Shown: piece after piece, positions 1,599-56,774 of the stretch
Numbering within the stretch: the first letter of the stretch is position 1
Layout of the letters: each line of letters starts with the position of its first letter
NCBI GenBank assembly: GCA_021783725.1
Contig: JAJXTN010000004.1
Span: 12,178 to 76,177 of the forward strand
DNA: 64,000 nucleotides
Direction of reading: 5' to 3'
From: a bacterium
Lineage (GTDB): Bacteria; Patescibacteriota; Saccharimonadia; Saccharimonadales; UBA4665
Notes under the pieces: generated by a model
The model's database searches: none
Told to the model about the DNA's origin: nothing
What the model saw: the letters and a program-made list of their open reading frames with translations, nothing else
Program-made: the position numbers and the translations under genes

Positions 1599-1886
1599 TT
1601 AAGCCCGGTGGCGAAAGCTACTAGGCAAGGGACCGGTGTTGGGCTTTCGGTCAGATCGATATCCGACCTCTACGGTTTGAAGGGTGCTAGATTGACCGGT
1701 CCTGGGTGCTGGAATATCTGGACTTAAGCCGGTGGCTAATATTACGGCCATGCCAGCCATACCAAGAGCGACAACCCTAGAAGCAAAACCATCGGCGACC
1801 GCCGGCATTTGATCCATAACTTGTTTGCTGGGTTGTCCAGTCATTAAGTCAATTACTTCAAATTGCCTTCTGTCACTCATGTGCAA
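1599..1886 (-). CDS. hypothetical small protein (one hydrophobic segment)
   Basis: The ORF abuts the truB stop codon. I recognise no family. The region may instead be a non-coding rpsO upstream region. Confidence 0.25.
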   Translation of the reverse strand: MHMSDRRQFEVIDLMTGQPSKQVMDQMPAVADGFASRVVALGMAGMAVILATGLSPDIPAPRTGQSSTLQTVEVGYRSDRKPNTGPLPSSFRHRA

Positions 1887-2753
1887 TTATTGTAGACTAG
1901 TCTGTAAATTTTTGGCAATCATGTCAGCATCTAATTTGTCGGTACCAATAGCCTCATCGATGAGATACTTACCTACTCGGATTCGTCGCAATTCAACAGT
2001 ATATGCACCAGTATTAAGTATTTTACCGATGTCTTCTACTAGCGTGCGGATATAAGTACCAGATGACACGTCAACCGTGAACTTCACCTCTGGATAGTTG
2101 TAGTCGTTAATCTGTAAGCTGTTAATTGATACCGTTCGCGGTTCGATTACTACTTGCTTACCTTCTCTGGCTAGTTTGTAGGCGCGTTGGCCATCAATCT
2201 TGATAGCCGAATAGGCTGGTGGCACCTGCTGAATAGCCCCCTTGAACTGTTTGGTTGCTTTTTCTACCTCATCTCGGGTGGGAATGACTATGTCATCTCG
2301 AGCTTGTCGAGAGATCTGTTCGGATTTACTATAGATCTCTCCACTCTGGTCGAGATGACGAGGCGCAAGTTCTGCATGACTAATAAAATCTGTGATTTCA
2401 CCTTCTGGGTCGCCAGTGGTGCTAGTTTTACCTAAACGCATGGTTACTTCGTAAGTTTTGTTTAGTTTCGATAGTTCGCCGGCTCGTTTGGTATAGTCTT
2501 TGCCTATTAAAAGTACTAATAATCCGGTAGCAAATGGATCAAGCGTGCCAGTGTGGCCGACTTTTACCTTCGGTAAACGAGTTGAAAGTTTGAAAGTTTC
2601 CCAGTCTAAGGTTATCTCGGCTTTTTCGCTTTTAGCTTTACGAACTTGATAACTTTCAACTACAGCGGCTTGTCGCGCAATCTGGCGTACGTAATTAACC
2701 ACGTCGAAACTTGTCCAACCGGCCGGTTTATCAACTAATAGCAGTCCTTGCAT
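1887..2753 (-). CDS. truB: tRNA pseudouridine(55) synthase TruB
   Basis: Motifs LLLVDKPAGWTSFDVV, GHTGTLDPFATGLL and QVPPAYSAIKIDGQRAY. I prefer the ATG at 2753 (MQGLLLVDKP) over the TTG at 2819 used in the track. The gene carries two repeat-derived in-frame inserts (see findings). Confidence 0.9.
   Translation of the reverse strand: MQGLLLVDKPAGWTSFDVVNYVRQIARQAAVVESYQVRKAKSEKAEITLDWETFKLSTRLPKVKVGHTGTLDPFATGLLVLLIGKDYTKRAGELSKLNKTYEVTMRLGKTSTTGDPEGEITDFISHAELAPRHLDQSGEIYSKSEQISRQARDDIVIPTRDEVEKATKQFKGAIQQVPPAYSAIKIDGQRAYKLAREGKQVVIEPRTVSINSLQINDYNYPEVKFTVDVSSGTYIRTLVEDIGKILNTGAYTVELRRIRVGKYLIDEAIGTDKLDADMIAKNLQTSLQ
2292..2359. repeat. GTCAT...ATGAC double-hairpin element embedded in the truB coding sequence
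   Basis: GTCATCTCGAGCTTGTCGAGAGATC-17 nt-GATCTCTCCACTCTGGTCGAGATGAC. The first hairpin is 25/25 identical to the reverse complement of 22258-22282. Confidence 0.85.
2580..2661. repeat. 82-nt segment bounded by a perfect 11-nt inverted repeat (AGTTGAAAGTT / AACTTTCAACT) inside truB
   Basis: Read directly from the sequence. It coincides with the first extra peptide of TruB (VESYQVRKAKSEKAEITLDWETFKLST). Confidence 0.7.
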
Positions 2754-2863
2754 AAAATTAAGTTTAACCCAAGAGGGCAAAAAGACAGACGCGACGGGCA
2801 AAAAGACAGCATTTAGCAATTTGCAAATTGCTCATTGCTAATCGTAGTTTGTCACCTGTTGTT

Positions 2864-4459
2864 TTAGGCGCTGGGCGGTCGAAACTGAAACGGAATCGGT
2901 GGTGGCACTGGTGGTGGCGCATTAGGATCATTGACTTCTGGCGGTGGAATCGTTGGCTCAGTGTTATGCAGTATATCGCCTAGTGGTTGAGCGTTTAGAG
3001 CTTGGATTGGTTCAGGGGTGCTACTAGGTACTGAATTTAGGGCTTGATTTACTTGATCTCTGGCGTCTTCTAAGTTGGCTTCGGCCGCCACATGTGGACT
3101 GTGCACTGATTCTTCTAAATCGGTTAGTGTTTCGTCGGAAGTATCATCGGCTAAGATTTTCAAACCGCTAGTGTCACCAATTGGGGCCGCCCAAGCTGGT
3201 GGTGGCGGTGAGAAGTCCGGCATTGCTGGCATTGGTGGCAATGGCTTGTCGGCTGGAGATGCTGTAAGAGGTTCCGGCGATTGGTCTGATGAAGTTGTAG
3301 CCGGTGGCTGTATCGATTCGGCCTGATCGGTACTAGGCATCGACTGCGACGGACTGTGGTCCAACATTTTACCTTGCGGTGCATAACCCATACTTAATGG
3401 GTCAACGGCGGGGTCGAGCCCTTCGGGCTGAGAATTAGCCGTCAATACCCCGCCCATGGTTGGCGCTGAAGTCATCAATCTTGAGCCGGGCGAAAGATTC
3501 TCGGAAGCCGGTTCGTCGGATTGCTCGGGCGGTTTCGATTCATCCAAACTCGGTAGTTTCAAATCTGGCAATTGATCCATTAGCGAAGGGTTGGATGGAA
3601 TCTCCGTGGCATTAGAATTATGACTTATGGCAAGGGTGCCGTCATCGGACTTAGTCGAACTATCATTGAGCGTTACTAGATCTTGCGATTCGTCGGTCGA
3701 TACGATTGACAAGCTACCCGATTCTTCGAGCTTAGTCGCAACCAATTGCTGATTAGCCCCGGCGGTCATTAAGGTCGCACTAACACTCATAGTCTGCGAA
3801 CTGGTCTTCTGATTACTGAACCGATTGGTTTCAGCCACAATACCAGTCAGTAAAGCGGTAGCAATTTGGGCATCAATCAAATTAGCGCCTAATTTACTAG
3901 CTAGGTCAGCCACAAGTTCGCCTAGGCTACTAGCTTGAGCGTCTGTCCAATTAAGACTACCTAACTCACCGCCTGTGACAGTGTTGATGCTGATGACTGT
4001 GGCATCATGAAGAATTCGCCCATGAGTGGTGATTGCCTCATCAAGATCCTCTTGTTTTAGTACACCCAAAGCAACAACAGCATCGACATTAAAATCACCT
4101 TGGCTAAAATCTAAATCATCTTGGGTGATTGATGTTCTATAAGGAGTAATGAATATTCTGACGACATTATCTTCAACTTTATAGCGCAGTTTGTCGGCTT
4201 TGGACTTATCTAGGGCAATTATGAAATCGCGCAATGAATCGGTGTTCTTCTCTAAAGTATCGCTCGGCTGGAGAAATTCAATCGTCGACGGTACTTGGCC
4301 ACTAAAAACAGCGGCCGTATGTTTGCCTAGCTTATTCAATAACAGAGTTAGTCCGATACAAGCCGACAGTTGGTCGACCGACGGGTTGCGACTAACCGTC
4401 ACCAATATATTATTGGCGGTCTTGAGTTTATCAGCAATCTCAGTTTTTACATTTTCCAT
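2864..4459 (-). CDS. DHH/NrnA-like phosphoesterase-fold protein with degenerate catalytic motifs and a long Pro/Ser-rich tail
   Basis: The N-terminal ~250 aa align in pattern with NrnA-type DHH proteins (ILVTVSRNPSVDQLSACIGLTLLL..., ...SSLGELVADL). The DGD and DHH positions read SVD and SIN. The C-terminal ~280 aa are low complexity. The position next to truB is typical for nrnA. Confidence 0.6.
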   Translation of the reverse strand: MENVKTEIADKLKTANNILVTVSRNPSVDQLSACIGLTLLLNKLGKHTAAVFSGQVPSTIEFLQPSDTLEKNTDSLRDFIIALDKSKADKLRYKVEDNVVRIFITPYRTSITQDDLDFSQGDFNVDAVVALGVLKQEDLDEAITTHGRILHDATVISINTVTGGELGSLNWTDAQASSLGELVADLASKLGANLIDAQIATALLTGIVAETNRFSNQKTSSQTMSVSATLMTAGANQQLVATKLEESGSLSIVSTDESQDLVTLNDSSTKSDDGTLAISHNSNATEIPSNPSLMDQLPDLKLPSLDESKPPEQSDEPASENLSPGSRLMTSAPTMGGVLTANSQPEGLDPAVDPLSMGYAPQGKMLDHSPSQSMPSTDQAESIQPPATTSSDQSPEPLTASPADKPLPPMPAMPDFSPPPPAWAAPIGDTSGLKILADDTSDETLTDLEESVHSPHVAAEANLEDARDQVNQALNSVPSSTPEPIQALNAQPLGDILHNTEPTIPPPEVNDPNAPPPVPPPIPFQFRPPSA

Positions 4460-5004: not shown

Positions 5005-5018
5005 TCTGTTAGTTGGAT

Positions 5019-5093
5019 AGTTAAATAGTGAGATAGTAAACCGCAGAAATGCTGGCGTACTATACGACTATAAAACTATCCCACTATTTAACT
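5019..5093. terminator. long inverted repeat between convergent rpsT and holA (candidate bidirectional terminator)
   Basis: AGTTAAATAGTGAGATAGT (5019-5037) pairs with ACTATCCCACTATTTAACT (5075-5093), matching 18 of 19 positions. Confidence 0.45.
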
Positions 5094-5108
5094 AATTATT
5101 TATTAAAG

Positions 5109-6038
5109 CTATTTTATTGATAGCTTTAATAAATAATTCTGCAAAGCTTCGTCACTGTCGATGTTTGAACTCTTAGAAGCAATATCGATAGCTAGTAGGT
5201 CGGCGATCAATTTTTTGAGCTGTCCGAGAGTTAATTGGGCGGCGACTGATTGACTTTTGCGGACTACAAAAGGATTTAACTTGGCATCGCTAGCGATTTG
5301 GTCAGCGCTAATATCACCGGCCGTTTTGATAATCGCTAAAATATGCAACTGCCAGGCCAGCATGGCTATAATTTGCGGAGTCTCAACTTTCAGAGCCCGC
5401 TGTTCTGAGTAGAGCTGGATGGCTTTCTTGGACTGGCCATTGAAAGCCGCTTCCAATAATTGGAAGATAGTACTCTGGGGTGTTTCGTCTACCAGCAAAT
5501 CGATAGTCCTACGAGTAACTTTCTCATCATATAACAGTAGTTTTTCGAGTTCATTACCAAGTAACTGCTGATTTAGACCAACCCGGTCGGCCAGATATCT
5601 AGCATCATTTAGATTCAGTTCCCCGCCCTTGGTTTTTGCTTGAGCAACCAACCACTGACTTAACCCATTAATATCTAACTCTTTATACTCTCGATAATTG
5701 GTTTTTGATTTTAGATACTTATAATAACTTAGTCGTTTATCAAGCTTAGTTTCAATAATGACGACGTCGTTAGTTTCGGGTAAGTTGGTCAATATTTGTT
5801 CAGCTCGGTCGGCAAATGACTTATTTTTACTCGGCGACCTTAGAATGACCAATTTTTTAGTTGATAGGAATGGTAAGCTGTTCAGCGCTTCTTCTATTTT
5901 CTCAATATCGGCTTCTTCGCCATCAATTCGTTCCAGAGCTAGATCACCATGCTCCTCAACGAATTTAGCAACCAGCTCATTTAGAGCAATTTGCCAACCA
6001 AAGCTATTGTCGCCGGCCAATGTAATAATCATGTTCAC
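5109..6038 (-). CDS. holA: DNA polymerase III subunit delta
   Basis: 309 aa. The N-terminus ...LERIDGEEADIEKIEEALNSLPFLSTKKLVILRSP... is typical of HolA, and the gene is adjacent to rpsT as in many Gram-positives. Confidence 0.8.
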   Translation of the reverse strand: MNMIITLAGDNSFGWQIALNELVAKFVEEHGDLALERIDGEEADIEKIEEALNSLPFLSTKKLVILRSPSKNKSFADRAEQILTNLPETNDVVIIETKLDKRLSYYKYLKSKTNYREYKELDINGLSQWLVAQAKTKGGELNLNDARYLADRVGLNQQLLGNELEKLLLYDEKVTRRTIDLLVDETPQSTIFQLLEAAFNGQSKKAIQLYSEQRALKVETPQIIAMLAWQLHILAIIKTAGDISADQIASDAKLNPFVVRKSQSVAAQLTLGQLKKLIADLLAIDIASKSSNIDSDEALQNYLLKLSIK

Positions 6039-26976: not shown

Positions 26977-27032
26977 CTATTTCAGGAAGAGCAGCGAAGC
27001 GATGAGGAACCCGATTGGGGTTCCTCATATTC

Positions 27033-30150: not shown

Positions 30151-30999
30151 ATGCCGAAGCTTAACCAACAAGTCTTGATGTCTGGGGCCGATTACTTTGA
30201 TGTCGTCGAGCTTAATTCTTACTCCAAAGGCATTACGGCTGTTGATCGTGAACGAGCTATGGCTGAATTCGCCAGTATCCAACAAGCACTGGAAACGGCC
30301 GGCATCGAAATCGTCAAAGTTGAGCCGCCTGCCGATTGCCAAGATGGTATATTCACCGCTAACTGGGGTCTTTGCCGAGGGGATAAAGTAATCCTGTCTT
30401 CCCTACCCGGCCCACGCCAAGCCGAAGAAGCCTATGCCGAAAAAATACTAACTGCTATGGGAAAACAGATTATTAAAGCGCCTCACCGCTTCAGTGGCCA
30501 AGGCGATGCTTTGCCATGTGGTAACTGGCTATTTGCTGGTTCGAATTATCGGACTGATCCGCAAATGCATCATTTTCTGGCTGAACAGTTTGGTTTTGAA
30601 GTCATAAGTTTAGAGACCGTACCCGAGCTAGATTCGGCCGGCAACCCAGTAATCAATCAGTTGTCCGGTTGGCCTGATAGTTTCTTCTATGACATCGACC
30701 TAGCGATTTCTGTCTTAAAAACTGATTTAATCGCTTGGTGCCCAGAAGCTTTCACACCGGACAGTCAGGCCAAGATGCGGGCTTTAGACATTCAGAAAAT
30801 CGAAGTTTCACTAGCCGAAGCCACCCAAGGCTTCGCCTGCAATCTAATATCCACCGGCGAAACAGTCATCATGAGTGCCCAAGCCCCTGAGCTACGGGCT
30901 AATATCGAAAAGCATGGCCTCAAAACGCTCACTCCCGCAATCAGTGAACTGGCCAAAGGTGGTGGATATATCCGTTGCACCACCCTGACTTTGAGTTAA
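30151..30999 (+). CDS. guanidino-group-modifying enzyme superfamily protein (amidinotransferase/DDAH/arginine-deiminase-like)
   Basis: The C-terminal KGGGYIRCTTLTL matches the catalytic-Cys signature GGG.(H/R)C of this superfamily. At about 280 aa it is the size of DDAH/amidinotransferase members. Confidence 0.6.
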   Translation: MPKLNQQVLMSGADYFDVVELNSYSKGITAVDRERAMAEFASIQQALETAGIEIVKVEPPADCQDGIFTANWGLCRGDKVILSSLPGPRQAEEAYAEKILTAMGKQIIKAPHRFSGQGDALPCGNWLFAGSNYRTDPQMHHFLAEQFGFEVISLETVPELDSAGNPVINQLSGWPDSFFYDIDLAISVLKTDLIAWCPEAFTPDSQAKMRALDIQKIEVSLAEATQGFACNLISTGETVIMSAQAPELRANIEKHGLKTLTPAISELAKGGGYIRCTTLTLS

Positions 31000-31035
31000 A
31001 AGTAAAAAGTCCTCACTTTATAAACTTTCAACTTG

Positions 31036-32334
31036 TTACTTTCTACTGTAGATGGCGCTATGCGCCGTAGCAATCTCGTCCCAAGCGTGCTCACCATCGG
31101 CCCGTTCAATAGTTTTTTCATGGCCTTTACCTAGAAGTAGTATCGTATCGCCAGCTTTAGCTCGATTGACAGCGAATTTAATCGCTTCGGTCCGATCATG
31201 AACTAAGAACAGATCACGGTCGCGGACCTTTCCAGCCGATTCAGCTCCTCCAGCTATCTGATCGATAATCGCTAAACCATCTATATCGCGATCATCCTCT
31301 TCGGTGATCACGACTTCATCGGCATAGCGCCCAGCTAACTCACCCTGCACTGCCCGTTTGGCTTCATCACGCCGACCAGCCGATCCAAACATCACTATCA
31401 ACTTGCCTTTGACTACCGGTCTCAAATCCTTGAACAACTTTTCGAAACTGTCAGGCGTATGAGCAAAATCGACTATTACGTCGTAGTCCTGGCCTTCATC
31501 TATCCTGGTCATCCGGCCCTCCACACCTTCTAAAGCAGCGATTCCTCGCTCTATCTGATCTTTGGTTAGACCAACGACTCGACCAGCCGCTACCGCCGCC
31601 AACGAATTATATATGTTGAAACTACCCGGCAAATTACAGCGTATATCATATCTATTATCACCTATGACCGCCATATAGCTACTGCCCGAGGGTTTGAGAT
31701 CGACGTTGGTCGCACGAAGATCACCTTTATCAATCCCGTAAGTAATTTTGGTGGCGATATCGCTGGCAAACAGCTCAGCACTAGGATCCTCAGCATTAAT
31801 GATGCCGGTTCTCAGGCCTTGCTGATTGGCATTAGCCAATTTGAAAAGTTTGCGCTTGGCGTCGCGGTAACGTTCAAAAGTTTTGTGATAATCCAAGTGC
31901 TCGTGAGTAACGTTAGTCATAACGGCGACTGAATATGGCACACCCCAGATGCGATTTTGGGCCAAGGCGTGACTAGTGGTCTCCAGTACCAACCATTCGA
32001 CACCTTGTTTTTTCATAGTTTTCAATCGGCGCATCAATTCTGGTACACCAACATTGGTCATATGATGAATTTGGGGGGTAATGTTTGAGCCGACACCAAA
32101 TCCAACGGTCGTCATCATGCCGACATGATAGCCAGCCTCGTTTAGCATCCGATGAATCATATAAGTCGTCGATGTTTTGCCGTTCGTGCCGGTCACACCG
32201 ATGACTTTCATGTGCTTAGCCGGAAAACCGTAAAGGATATTGAAGATTACCGCCTCTAACAGATGGCCGTAAGGCTCAATCGCCGGGAACAAACCGCTAG
32301 GAATAATTTTCTTAACACTATTACGAAAACTCAT
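31036..32334 (-). CDS. murE: Mur ligase, MurE-like (UDP-MurNAc-L-Ala-D-Glu: diamino acid ligase) with a short N-terminal domain
   Basis: VIGVTGTNGKTSTTYM (P-loop) and DFAHTPDSFEKL (MurE-type). I prefer the ATG at 32334 (MSFRNS). Confidence 0.75.
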   Translation of the reverse strand: MSFRNSVKKIIPSGLFPAIEPYGHLLEAVIFNILYGFPAKHMKVIGVTGTNGKTSTTYMIHRMLNEAGYHVGMMTTVGFGVGSNITPQIHHMTNVGVPELMRRLKTMKKQGVEWLVLETTSHALAQNRIWGVPYSVAVMTNVTHEHLDYHKTFERYRDAKRKLFKLANANQQGLRTGIINAEDPSAELFASDIATKITYGIDKGDLRATNVDLKPSGSSYMAVIGDNRYDIRCNLPGSFNIYNSLAAVAAGRVVGLTKDQIERGIAALEGVEGRMTRIDEGQDYDVIVDFAHTPDSFEKLFKDLRPVVKGKLIVMFGSAGRRDEAKRAVQGELAGRYADEVVITEEDDRDIDGLAIIDQIAGGAESAGKVRDRDLFLVHDRTEAIKFAVNRAKAGDTILLLGKGHEKTIERADGEHAWDEIATAHSAIYSRK

Positions 32335-32399
32335 CTCAATGATTATAAAGCAAACTGGCCAGTTTGCCGGCCAGTTTGCATTGTTCAGATACAACTATT

Positions 32400-37595: not shown

Positions 37596-37738
37596 TAGTC
37601 GGGGAGTAGACGTTGCAGACTTACAGATAGCAGAAGGGCAGGGAGGCGACAGGAATCAGACTGTCAGACCACGTAGCCTGCTACCTGCTATCTGTTACCC
37701 ACCTGTTTATCTGTTGTCTGAATCCTGATTATCTGAAT

Positions 37739-54696: not shown

Positions 54697-54736
54697 CAAA
54701 AATGAATAGCCCTCCGTCGCTAAAGCTATGGAGGGC
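54697..54736 (-). terminator. terminator after the tRNA-Ser pair
   Basis: On the minus strand: GCCCTCC-loop-GGAGGGC followed by TATTCATTTTT. Confidence 0.5.
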
Positions 54737-54784
54737 ATCCTACTCGATAATATGTAAATCCTACGAAGCTTTAGCGAAGTAGGA

Positions 54785-56706: not shown

Positions 56707-56727
56707 ACGACAAATCTAACCAAATAA

Positions 56728-56755
56728 AATACCCCCTCGATTTTGAGGGGGTATT
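56728..56755. terminator. bidirectional rho-independent terminator (hsp20 and the pilin operon)
   Basis: AATACCCCCTC-gatttt-GAGGGGGTATT, flanked by an A-run and a T-run. Confidence 0.75.
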
Positions 56756-56774
56756 TTATTGGCGAAGAATATAT

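Follow-up and report, generated by a model that had tools for sequence, protein, structure and literature searches.

An in-frame hairpin insert in truB of a Saccharimonadales bacterium as a probable ancient copy of a small dispersed repeat

The 64,000-nt stretch of DNA analysed here (the window) carries a truB gene encoding tRNA pseudouridine-55 synthase, a product of 288 aa in which the catalytic motif GHTGTLDP contains the catalytic Asp72. The gene starts with an ATG at 2753-2751 and GHTGTLD occupies residues 66-72. Its product belongs to the TruB family by its Pfam domains, TruB_N (3.5e-46) and TruB_C_2 (8.8e-9), and homologues with 53-67% identity carry the name TruB in their sources. Ahead of the catalytic motif lies an 82-nt stretch, H2, bounded by the perfect 11-nt inverted repeat AGTTGAAAGTT (2580-2590) and AACTTTCAACT (2651-2661) with a spacer of 60 nt, and the arms extend to 19 nt at 84% complementarity (2580-2598 and 2643-2661). 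In the minus-strand reading frame this stretch encodes VESYQVRKAKSEKAEITLDWETFKLST, which corresponds to 27 codons for TruB residues 32-58 and ends 14 residues ahead of Asp72. A first-pass annotation of the sequence had described both the perfect inverted repeat and an in-frame insert of about 27 residues ahead of GHTGTLDP, and both were confirmed at these positions. The features referred to below are as follows.

1887-2753, minus strand: truB, tRNA pseudouridine-55 synthase, identified with Pfam.
2580-2661, minus strand: H2, a putative worn copy of a hairpin repeat with an AAAGT-array and an ACTTT-array arm, codons V32-T58, defined by the inverted repeat and the family profile.
2643-2661, minus strand: 5′ arm of H2 in mRNA sense, AGUUGAAAGUUAUCAAGUU, codons V31-V37, defined by the 84% complementary arms and a position-3 difference of 0.29.
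2580-2598, minus strand: 3′ arm of H2 in mRNA sense, AACUUUCAAACUUUCAACU, codons E52-T58, defined by arm complementarity and a position-3 difference of 0.28, with a direct 8-nt duplication, ACTTTCAA, inside it.
2599-2642, minus strand: loop of H2, the variable middle of the insert, residues about 38-51, defined by codon-position differences and in-frame indels among relatives.
2563-2577, minus strand: H3, a short hairpin of sequence UUUACC-GAA-GGUAAA in codons R59-K64, adjoining the insert on its 3′ side and defined by covariation across families.
2565-2684, minus strand: the whole L cassette, codons 24-63, standing in place of a 14-codon S loop (RIVATVEGKKPKNC) in the L/S nucleotide alignment.
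2292-2359, minus strand: GTCAT-type insert of truB, residues about 125-157, from another repeat family, identified by its BLAST copies.
30999-31040, plus strand: intergenic mini-hairpin, AAAGT twice, CCTC, then ACTTT three times, which holds the third exact 11-mer, identified by its architecture and with a profile E of about 1.

Taken by itself, H2 is not beyond what chance would produce in this genome, and its significance comes solely from comparison with relatives and from the family profile. Perfect inverted repeats with arms of 11 nt or more and a loop of up to 100 nt number eight in the window, compared with a shuffle mean of 1.28, and at least one such repeat occurred in 68% of dinucleotide shuffles of the window. 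RNA folding of the 82-nt stretch gave z = 0.12, while the whole loop segment gave z = -0.29 in sense and -1.35 in antisense orientation, among the weakest of the L-type copies defined below. The genome-wide search for the 11-mer that the first-pass annotation had proposed returned a modest five occurrences over both strands of the 843-kb genome, and no second copy of the 82 nt or of the peptide was found by BLASTN or TBLASTN in the same genome, where only 12-19-nt matches appeared. Likewise, a scan of this genome for at least four AAAGT or ACTTT within 45 nt found one cluster each.

We compared the TruB loop among relatives, using L form for a long loop with the insert and S form for a short loop. 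The same insert was present in at least 35 of the 120 best TruB protein matches, with the S form in 85. Nearly all long loops followed the consensus ARQaALVESYkVhKvESEKxGxxLDFxTFqLSTrLPKVKVGH, and the loop in the remaining proteins was IVATAEGKKPKNCKVGH. The distance from DKP to GH is 58 residues here compared with 29-32 in most Saccharibacteria, which bears out the earlier view that the stretch was inserted and that ordinary TruB lacks it; Patescibacteria from outside the order mostly have a short loop, of 24-37 residues between DKP and GH. Most of 40 related genomes encode a TruB of 226-245 aa that aligns to the query in three pieces and has neither insert, and in the congener G003 the H2 insert is present at the same length while the GTCAT-type insert is absent. 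Many families of the order have long TruB loops of other sequence, and scanning the insert alignment against contig collections found only one locus in the metagenome and three loci in the genome collections.

In a backbone tree built without the loop columns the L and S forms were interleaved, with at least 12 changes between them, at least four of which were forced by well-supported branches, so recombination or repeated events are needed. In one close pair, P0003 (L) and P0016 (S), protein identity outside the loops is 93.5% and DNA divergence about 13%, with 14 unrelated codons standing in place of codons 24-63 as a wholesale swap. The cassette is not simply an S loop plus an insertion, as the flanks within it (ARQAA and RLPKV) differ from those of the S loop (VATAEG and KKPKNC), and because the flanks also differ between L and S neither a clean insertion site nor a target duplication can be shown. 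No direct repeat around the cassette was found in the L/S nucleotide alignment, the flanks being replaced and not duplicated, and the cassette does not show the combination of terminal inverted repeats and target-site duplication that marks a MITE. The swap may have proceeded by re-insertion, by conversion from dispersed copies or by whole-allele recombination.

The insert lies between helix α1 and the strand bearing the catalytic Asp of TruB. None of the insert copies contained a stop codon and every indel was in frame, as a multiple of three, with changes in the cassette falling mostly at third codon positions. AlphaFold2, run with 120 sequences, predicted ordered helices with a pLDDT of 94-97 over the insert, in which helix α1 (residues 15-44) and a return helix (residues 51-57) form a helical hairpin that extends α1; for the GTCAT-type insert at residues 125-157 the pLDDT was 59-77. 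Since the frame is always open, the changes are mostly at third positions and the predicted fold is ordered, the cassette behaves as a part of the protein, and the insert is predicted to be translated as an ordered helical extension of TruB.

A cassette from a relative was used to search 200 genomes of the same family, and, besides truB itself, matches at other loci were found in four of them (G770, G726, G003 and G365), extending over 72-79 nt at 74-78% identity (E 1e-7 to 1e-10), with further matches of 30-32 nt of arm at 91-94% identity. This overturned the idea that no family exists, which BLAST against the genome itself had first suggested. The copies outside truB are intergenic hairpins of the form GTTGAAAGTTATAAAGTTyATAAAGT..., a GC-rich spacer, then ...AACTTTATAACTTTCAACTTTC. 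Three of them (L107, L108 and L109) are flanked by a TACAAT-type promoter on one side and a gene's ribosome-binding site on the other, and others are long arrays adjoining other repeats. We counted the 15-nt arm motif GAAAGTTATAAAGTT in whole genomes, allowing up to two mismatches and using the reversed pattern as a control, with the following results.

G003, same genus, L-type truB: arm motif 95, control 3.
G770, truB without a full cassette match: arm motif 87, control 7.
G726, L-type truB: arm motif 19, control 3.
G000 (this genome), L-type truB: arm motif 15, control 6.
G365, L-type truB: arm motif 12, control 6.
G001, S-type congener: arm motif 3, control 3.
G002, S-type congener: arm motif 0, control 4.

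A family profile was then built from nine intergenic hairpins of other genomes, without any truB sequence. In this genome only two matches fell below E 1e-3, the best at C4:90301-90376 (E 3.4e-6) and the second-best at C6:14758-14837 (E 3.3e-4), which is window 2581-2660 and covers the full model; the best match in a reversed-genome decoy had E 2.1. Applied to truB, the profile recovered all 12 L-type loci that were tested (5e-13 to 8e-4) and none of 13 S-type loci. The score of the window copy, 20 bits, is the second lowest of 13 L-type copies, with only L033 of another family lower (18.8). The C4:90301-90376 copy falls within an open frame, where a membrane protein begins, and shares the reading register of the truB insert (...SKVESKKPEERRSNFLLSTFYF...). 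These results show the repeat family spread over intergenic sites in Saccharibacteria that belong to the same bacterial family, abundant in some genomes and nearly extinct here, and two further proposals of the first-pass annotation are upheld, namely that there is a second small palindromic family distinct from the GTCAT-type and that it also sits in coding DNA. Also as reported there, positions 31023-31033 contain a third exact copy of the 11-mer, with an imperfect partner beside it; membership of the family is less secure, as the site has the right architecture but a profile E of only about 1, and the mini-hairpin at 30999-31040 is best described as a probable weak or decayed member. The GTCAT-type repeat has many BLAST copies of 26-30 nt, on contigs C3, C5, C6, C7, C12, C16, C18 and C19. 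A Y1 transposase (PF01797), considered as a possible mobiliser of the AAAGT/ACTTT family, showed no clean link to it, as the gene is present in this genome (three copies), G003 (two), G365 and G818, and absent from G770, with its 87 motifs, and from G726, and so does not track copy number.

We next compared the DNA of 11 L-type genes whose proteins are 55-67% identical. In nine of these the same motif pair, GTTGAAAGT and ACTTTCAAC, forms the longest perfect inverted repeat of the loop segment, with a length of 7-11 nt and a codon register that varies (K-L-S-T here, N-F-Q in L063). At identical residues the fraction of identical codons was 0.6-0.82 in the insert compared with 0.43 gene-wide, and the edges of this synonymous constraint are sharp, at codons 32 and 63. 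Pairwise differences at position 3 were 0.28-0.29 for the arms, about half the 0.55-0.65 of the flanks, and 0.23 for H3, while positions 1 and 2 of the arm codons changed at a rate equal to or above that of the flanks. In the middle of the insert (codons 43-49) the differences at positions 1, 2 and 3 were 0.40, 0.40 and 0.67, so that position 3 is saturated and the cassette is as old as the gene comparison allows. This also rules out recent spread as the source of the synonymous conservation. Quiet third positions in the arms together with a saturated middle indicate an old copy with arms constrained as nucleic acid, and on this comparison something acts on the H2 arms at that level. The first-pass annotation had held that absence of the 11-mer pair elsewhere in the genome beyond chance, together with conservation of the peptide in TruB of unrelated CPR lineages, would speak against a repeat origin; the peptide is indeed conserved, but only within Saccharimonadales and not in unrelated CPR lineages, and on the nucleotide side the arms show more conservation than the protein calls for.

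In other families the arms have different sequences and are still complementary (AGAGCT/AGCTCT, AGTC/GACT, GAGTAC/GTACTC and AATTAGGAA/TTCCTAATT). For 35 distinct L-type inserts from many families the mean folding z against dinucleotide shuffles was -1.95 in sense and -2.85 in antisense, compared with -0.34 for length-matched control segments of truB (paired t-test, p = 1.7e-5), and with synonymous-codon shuffles z was also mostly negative, the lowest value being -4.8. The hairpin envisaged by the first-pass annotation is thus unremarkable in the window copy but evident across the L-type inserts as a set. H3 recurs across families as a 6-8-bp hairpin with covariation, with the stems CCUUUACC/GGUAAAGG, CCUUCGGC/GCCGAAGG, CCUUCAGC/GCUGAAGG and CGCGCACC/GGUGCGCG; 67% of its cells are paired compared with 29-46% with slid partners, and two-sided changes were seen in 37 cells, in seven of the eight pairs, compared with 15.4 ± 4.0 in shuffles (none of 500 reached 37). 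Hairpin formation therefore looks to be a conserved property of L-type inserts. The possibility that the arms bound an invertible coding segment was ruled out, as stops appear on inversion in seven of 13 sequences.

We consider it probable that the 82 nt are an ancient, in-frame copy of a small dispersed hairpin repeat, predicted to be translated. The repeat would be built from a 5′ arm array of 7-8-nt units (G/T)NAAAGTT, a short variable spacer and a 3′ arm of the complement AACTTTN(A/C). A mobile hairpin of this kind would have inserted into a permissive surface loop of TruB, and its arms would have persisted through maintained pairing. In one of the two pairing registers, a third codon position in the 5′ arm would face a second position in the 3′ arm, and synonymous changes would therefore not be free. 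What keeps up the pairing could be selection acting on a hairpin in mRNA or DNA, template switching from one arm to the other, or conversion from copies elsewhere. Perfect stems with seemingly compensatory changes are known products of template switching, which both creates and maintains them (PMC8794818), and this process could plausibly keep the arms paired. The copy in this genome would be decaying together with its family.

More tentatively, it is possible that the truB loop is kept in step with the hairpin-repeat population of each genome. The truB arms carry AAAGTT here, AGAGCT in family f4 and GAGTAC in family f33, with the same motif elsewhere in each genome. The truB arm motif of two genomes of other families occurs elsewhere in those genomes nine times against one for the control (G255) and 11 times against one (G154), with 0-1 occurrences in three S-type congeners of G154, and congeners that lack the repeats have the short S loop. 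If this coupling were true, an active process would repeatedly rewrite 40 codons beside the TruB catalytic site, candidates for which would be re-insertion directed by the hairpin, conversion from copies dispersed in the genome, and selection exerted by a shared hairpin-binding factor, and the coupling would also explain the swaps of L and S alleles between lineages.

A different reading, which we regard as unlikely, is that the insert is a functional cis-acting structure and not selfish DNA, with H1-H2-H3 kept in the truB mRNA, in the antisense strand or in DNA for what they do. They might, for example, control how stable the mRNA is or how it is processed, make translation pause ahead of the catalytic strand, or bind a factor that recognises the intergenic copies too. 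Such a reading overlaps with a repeat origin, and the difference is why the arms persist. The constrained synonymous sites of the arms and H3 with their sharp edges, the two-sided changes in H3, arms that vary between families yet remain complementary, and the intergenic copies placed between promoter and ribosome-binding site all fit such a role. However, the inserts fold at least as well in antisense as in sense (-35.3 vs -32.1 kcal/mol, p = 0.0012), and when G:U and A:C single mismatches were used to look for structure in the sense mRNA the outcome was the opposite of that expected under mRNA selection, with 13 A:C and four G:U, which are small numbers. Moreover, most relatives, congeners included, do without the cassette, and the copy in this genome is eroding. 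A search of window 1800-3000 with the Rfam 15 covariance models gave no match with an E of 10 or less, no internal promoter or terminator was found within the insert, and inspection by eye found no T-arm mimic of the kind TruB autoregulation might use (a 5-bp stem with a UUCRANN loop).

It is still less likely that template switching or an inverted duplication during replication gave rise to the palindrome on the spot, inside a permissive loop, and that its likeness to the intergenic hairpins reflects a shared low-complexity AAAGT/ACTTT composition. Template switching can yield such stems (PMC8794818), the arms are made of short tandem sub-repeats that suggest slippage, and there is no target-site duplication. 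Against this, the intergenic match spans 70-80 nt in the same unit order at 74-78% identity, the profile separates all L-type from all S-type loci and from the reversed decoy, and the truB arm type recurs elsewhere in the same genomes but not in S-type congeners. That the repeat is fortuitous, in a protein loop of the usual lineage-specific kind where the codons of the conserved residues VES and TFK/LST are complementary by accident, is very improbable, even though the shuffles readily produce such repeats, the window copy folds no better than expected and the 11-mer is scarce; the pair recurs in nine of 11 homologues despite saturated synonymous sites around it, does so in different codon registers (KLST and NFQ), and the profile match lands exactly on 2581-2660. 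Finally, we give almost no credence to a recent insertion private to this genome from an element that is still mobile, although the words of the first-pass annotation on independent repeat-derived inserts could be read in that sense, and the GTCAT-type insert of the same gene is genome-specific and from a multi-copy family. At least 35 related proteins carry an orthologous insert that occupies the same position in the same reading frame, G003 has it at the same length, the middle of the insert is saturated at position 3, and intact family copies are nearly absent from this genome.

Palindromic repeats translated within genes are a classic oddity of Rickettsia. They are said to have been described by Ogata et al. 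in Science in 2000 under the title 'Selfish DNA in protein-coding genes of Rickettsia', and REP doublets (REPINs) reportedly by Bertels and Rainey in 2011. An ancient in-frame copy of a dispersed hairpin repeat has its closest analogues in the Rickettsia palindromic elements (RPEs; PMC1779305) and in intragenic REPs (PMC3733652). Like the RPEs, the truB repeat belongs to a dispersed palindromic family found between genes and in frame in a housekeeping gene that is left unbroken, the insert is translated (here by prediction) and tolerated, and copy numbers rise and fall by lineage. It differs in its length of about 80 nt compared with 100-150 bp, in its arms, which are AAAGT arrays of 7-8-nt units and not unique sequence and so stand apart from RPE descriptions, in its host, a CPR bacterium, and in that the truB copy is common to many species, has constrained synonymous sites and encodes a peptide predicted to be ordered.

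The likeness to REPs and REPINs lies in two inverted units with a spacer that fold into a long hairpin, in a mainly intergenic distribution with occasional intragenic copies (GTAG/CGTC-tagged REPs occur inside genes; PMC3733652), in an abundance that differs sharply among close relatives, and in the presence of Y1 (IS200-like) transposase genes in this genome. However, a REP is a 20-40-bp GC-rich palindrome with a GTAG/CGTC tag, whereas the arms of the truB repeat begin GTTGAAAGTT, carry no such tag and are AT-rich arrays, and Y1 presence does not follow copy number, as G770 illustrates. The GTCAT-type insert in the same gene is likewise an in-frame hairpin repeat in a loop, at a site used repeatedly in related lineages, but it is of another sequence family, genome-specific and predicted to be disordered, whereas H2 is old, shared and predicted to be ordered. 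PARCELs resemble the insert as coding DNA with dyad symmetry and a predicted helical, amphipathic peptide, but they are tandem 25-residue domains of surface and accessory proteins that spread by horizontal transfer, whereas the truB insert is a single unit in a conserved enzyme, with non-coding relatives.

These findings place a Rickettsia-like palindromic repeat, predicted to be translated and from a differently built family of heptamer arrays, in Saccharibacteria of the candidate phyla radiation. A hairpin inserted and kept for a long time seems to have turned into an ordered portion of an essential enzyme, with its DNA arms still under constraint, alleles with long and short loops are apparently exchanged among close relatives, and the arms in truB look as if they track the repeats that populate each genome. 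For annotation, this is a warning that lineage-specific insertions in core genes can derive from repeats, and the truB loop offers a tractable system for how selfish or structural DNA becomes protein sequence.

Immediately before the VGH codons of truB, the minus strand carries a 6-8-bp hairpin (window 2563-2577). Its paired positions covary across Saccharimonadales families, with the encoded peptide changing between RLPKVK, RAPKVR, PSAKPK and PSAKLK while pairing is kept, and the hairpin is absent from short-loop TruB genes. Among close relatives, comparison of locus L066 with L072/L073 showed that lineages have exchanged the long- and short-loop truB alleles; outside the loops, the TruB proteins of these lineages share 93.5% identity. 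At these loci, synonymous variants immediately downstream of the cassette (the long loop, codons 24-63) track allele type, which suggests recombination tracts.

The window holds eight perfect inverted repeats, the truB repeat and seven others of 11-19 nt, against 1.28 expected, and several of the seven look like terminators. A direct repeat and a palindrome also lie next to truB.

Other repeats in the window
5018-5138, 27002-27028, 32350-32379, 37623-37695, 54717-54777, 56723-56760: the seven non-truB inverted repeats
2775-2809: direct repeat GGGCAAAAAGACAG, two copies 21 nt apart, immediately upstream of the truB start
2808-2839: 16-nt palindrome, following the direct repeat

Beyond the window, the top AAAGT/ACTTT hairpin copy of the genome lies within an open frame, where its reading register matches that of the truB insert. 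The product is predicted to be a membrane protein, with the copy at its putative N-terminus, and the gene is divergent from a GT2 glycosyltransferase gene. The 843-kb genome also encodes three Y1 (IS200/RAYT-like) transposases; such genes are absent from two congeners with short-loop truB.

Features elsewhere in the genome
C4:90301-90376: top hairpin copy
C11:33989-34219: Y1 transposase gene
C12:35836-36072: Y1 transposase gene
C17:32137-32367: Y1 transposase gene

In G003, a congener with long-loop truB, intergenic regions L114-L120 contain dense arrays built from heptamers of two types (ACTTTAT/ACTTTCC and TTCCTAG/TTCCTAA). Repeats of the GTCATCCAGAGCG type accompany these arrays, as does an AT-rich 50-mer (AAGGAATATTTATCAATTCACA...) that recurs.

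At the second TruB insertion site, around residue 125, three proteins of relatives (P0009, P0016 and P0031) displayed differing repeat-like peptides. Peptides at this site include ...HPERSEGSFAIAQDD... and ...EKSRQAPGILPRSFARAQDD..., and this TruB loop has been targeted repeatedly.
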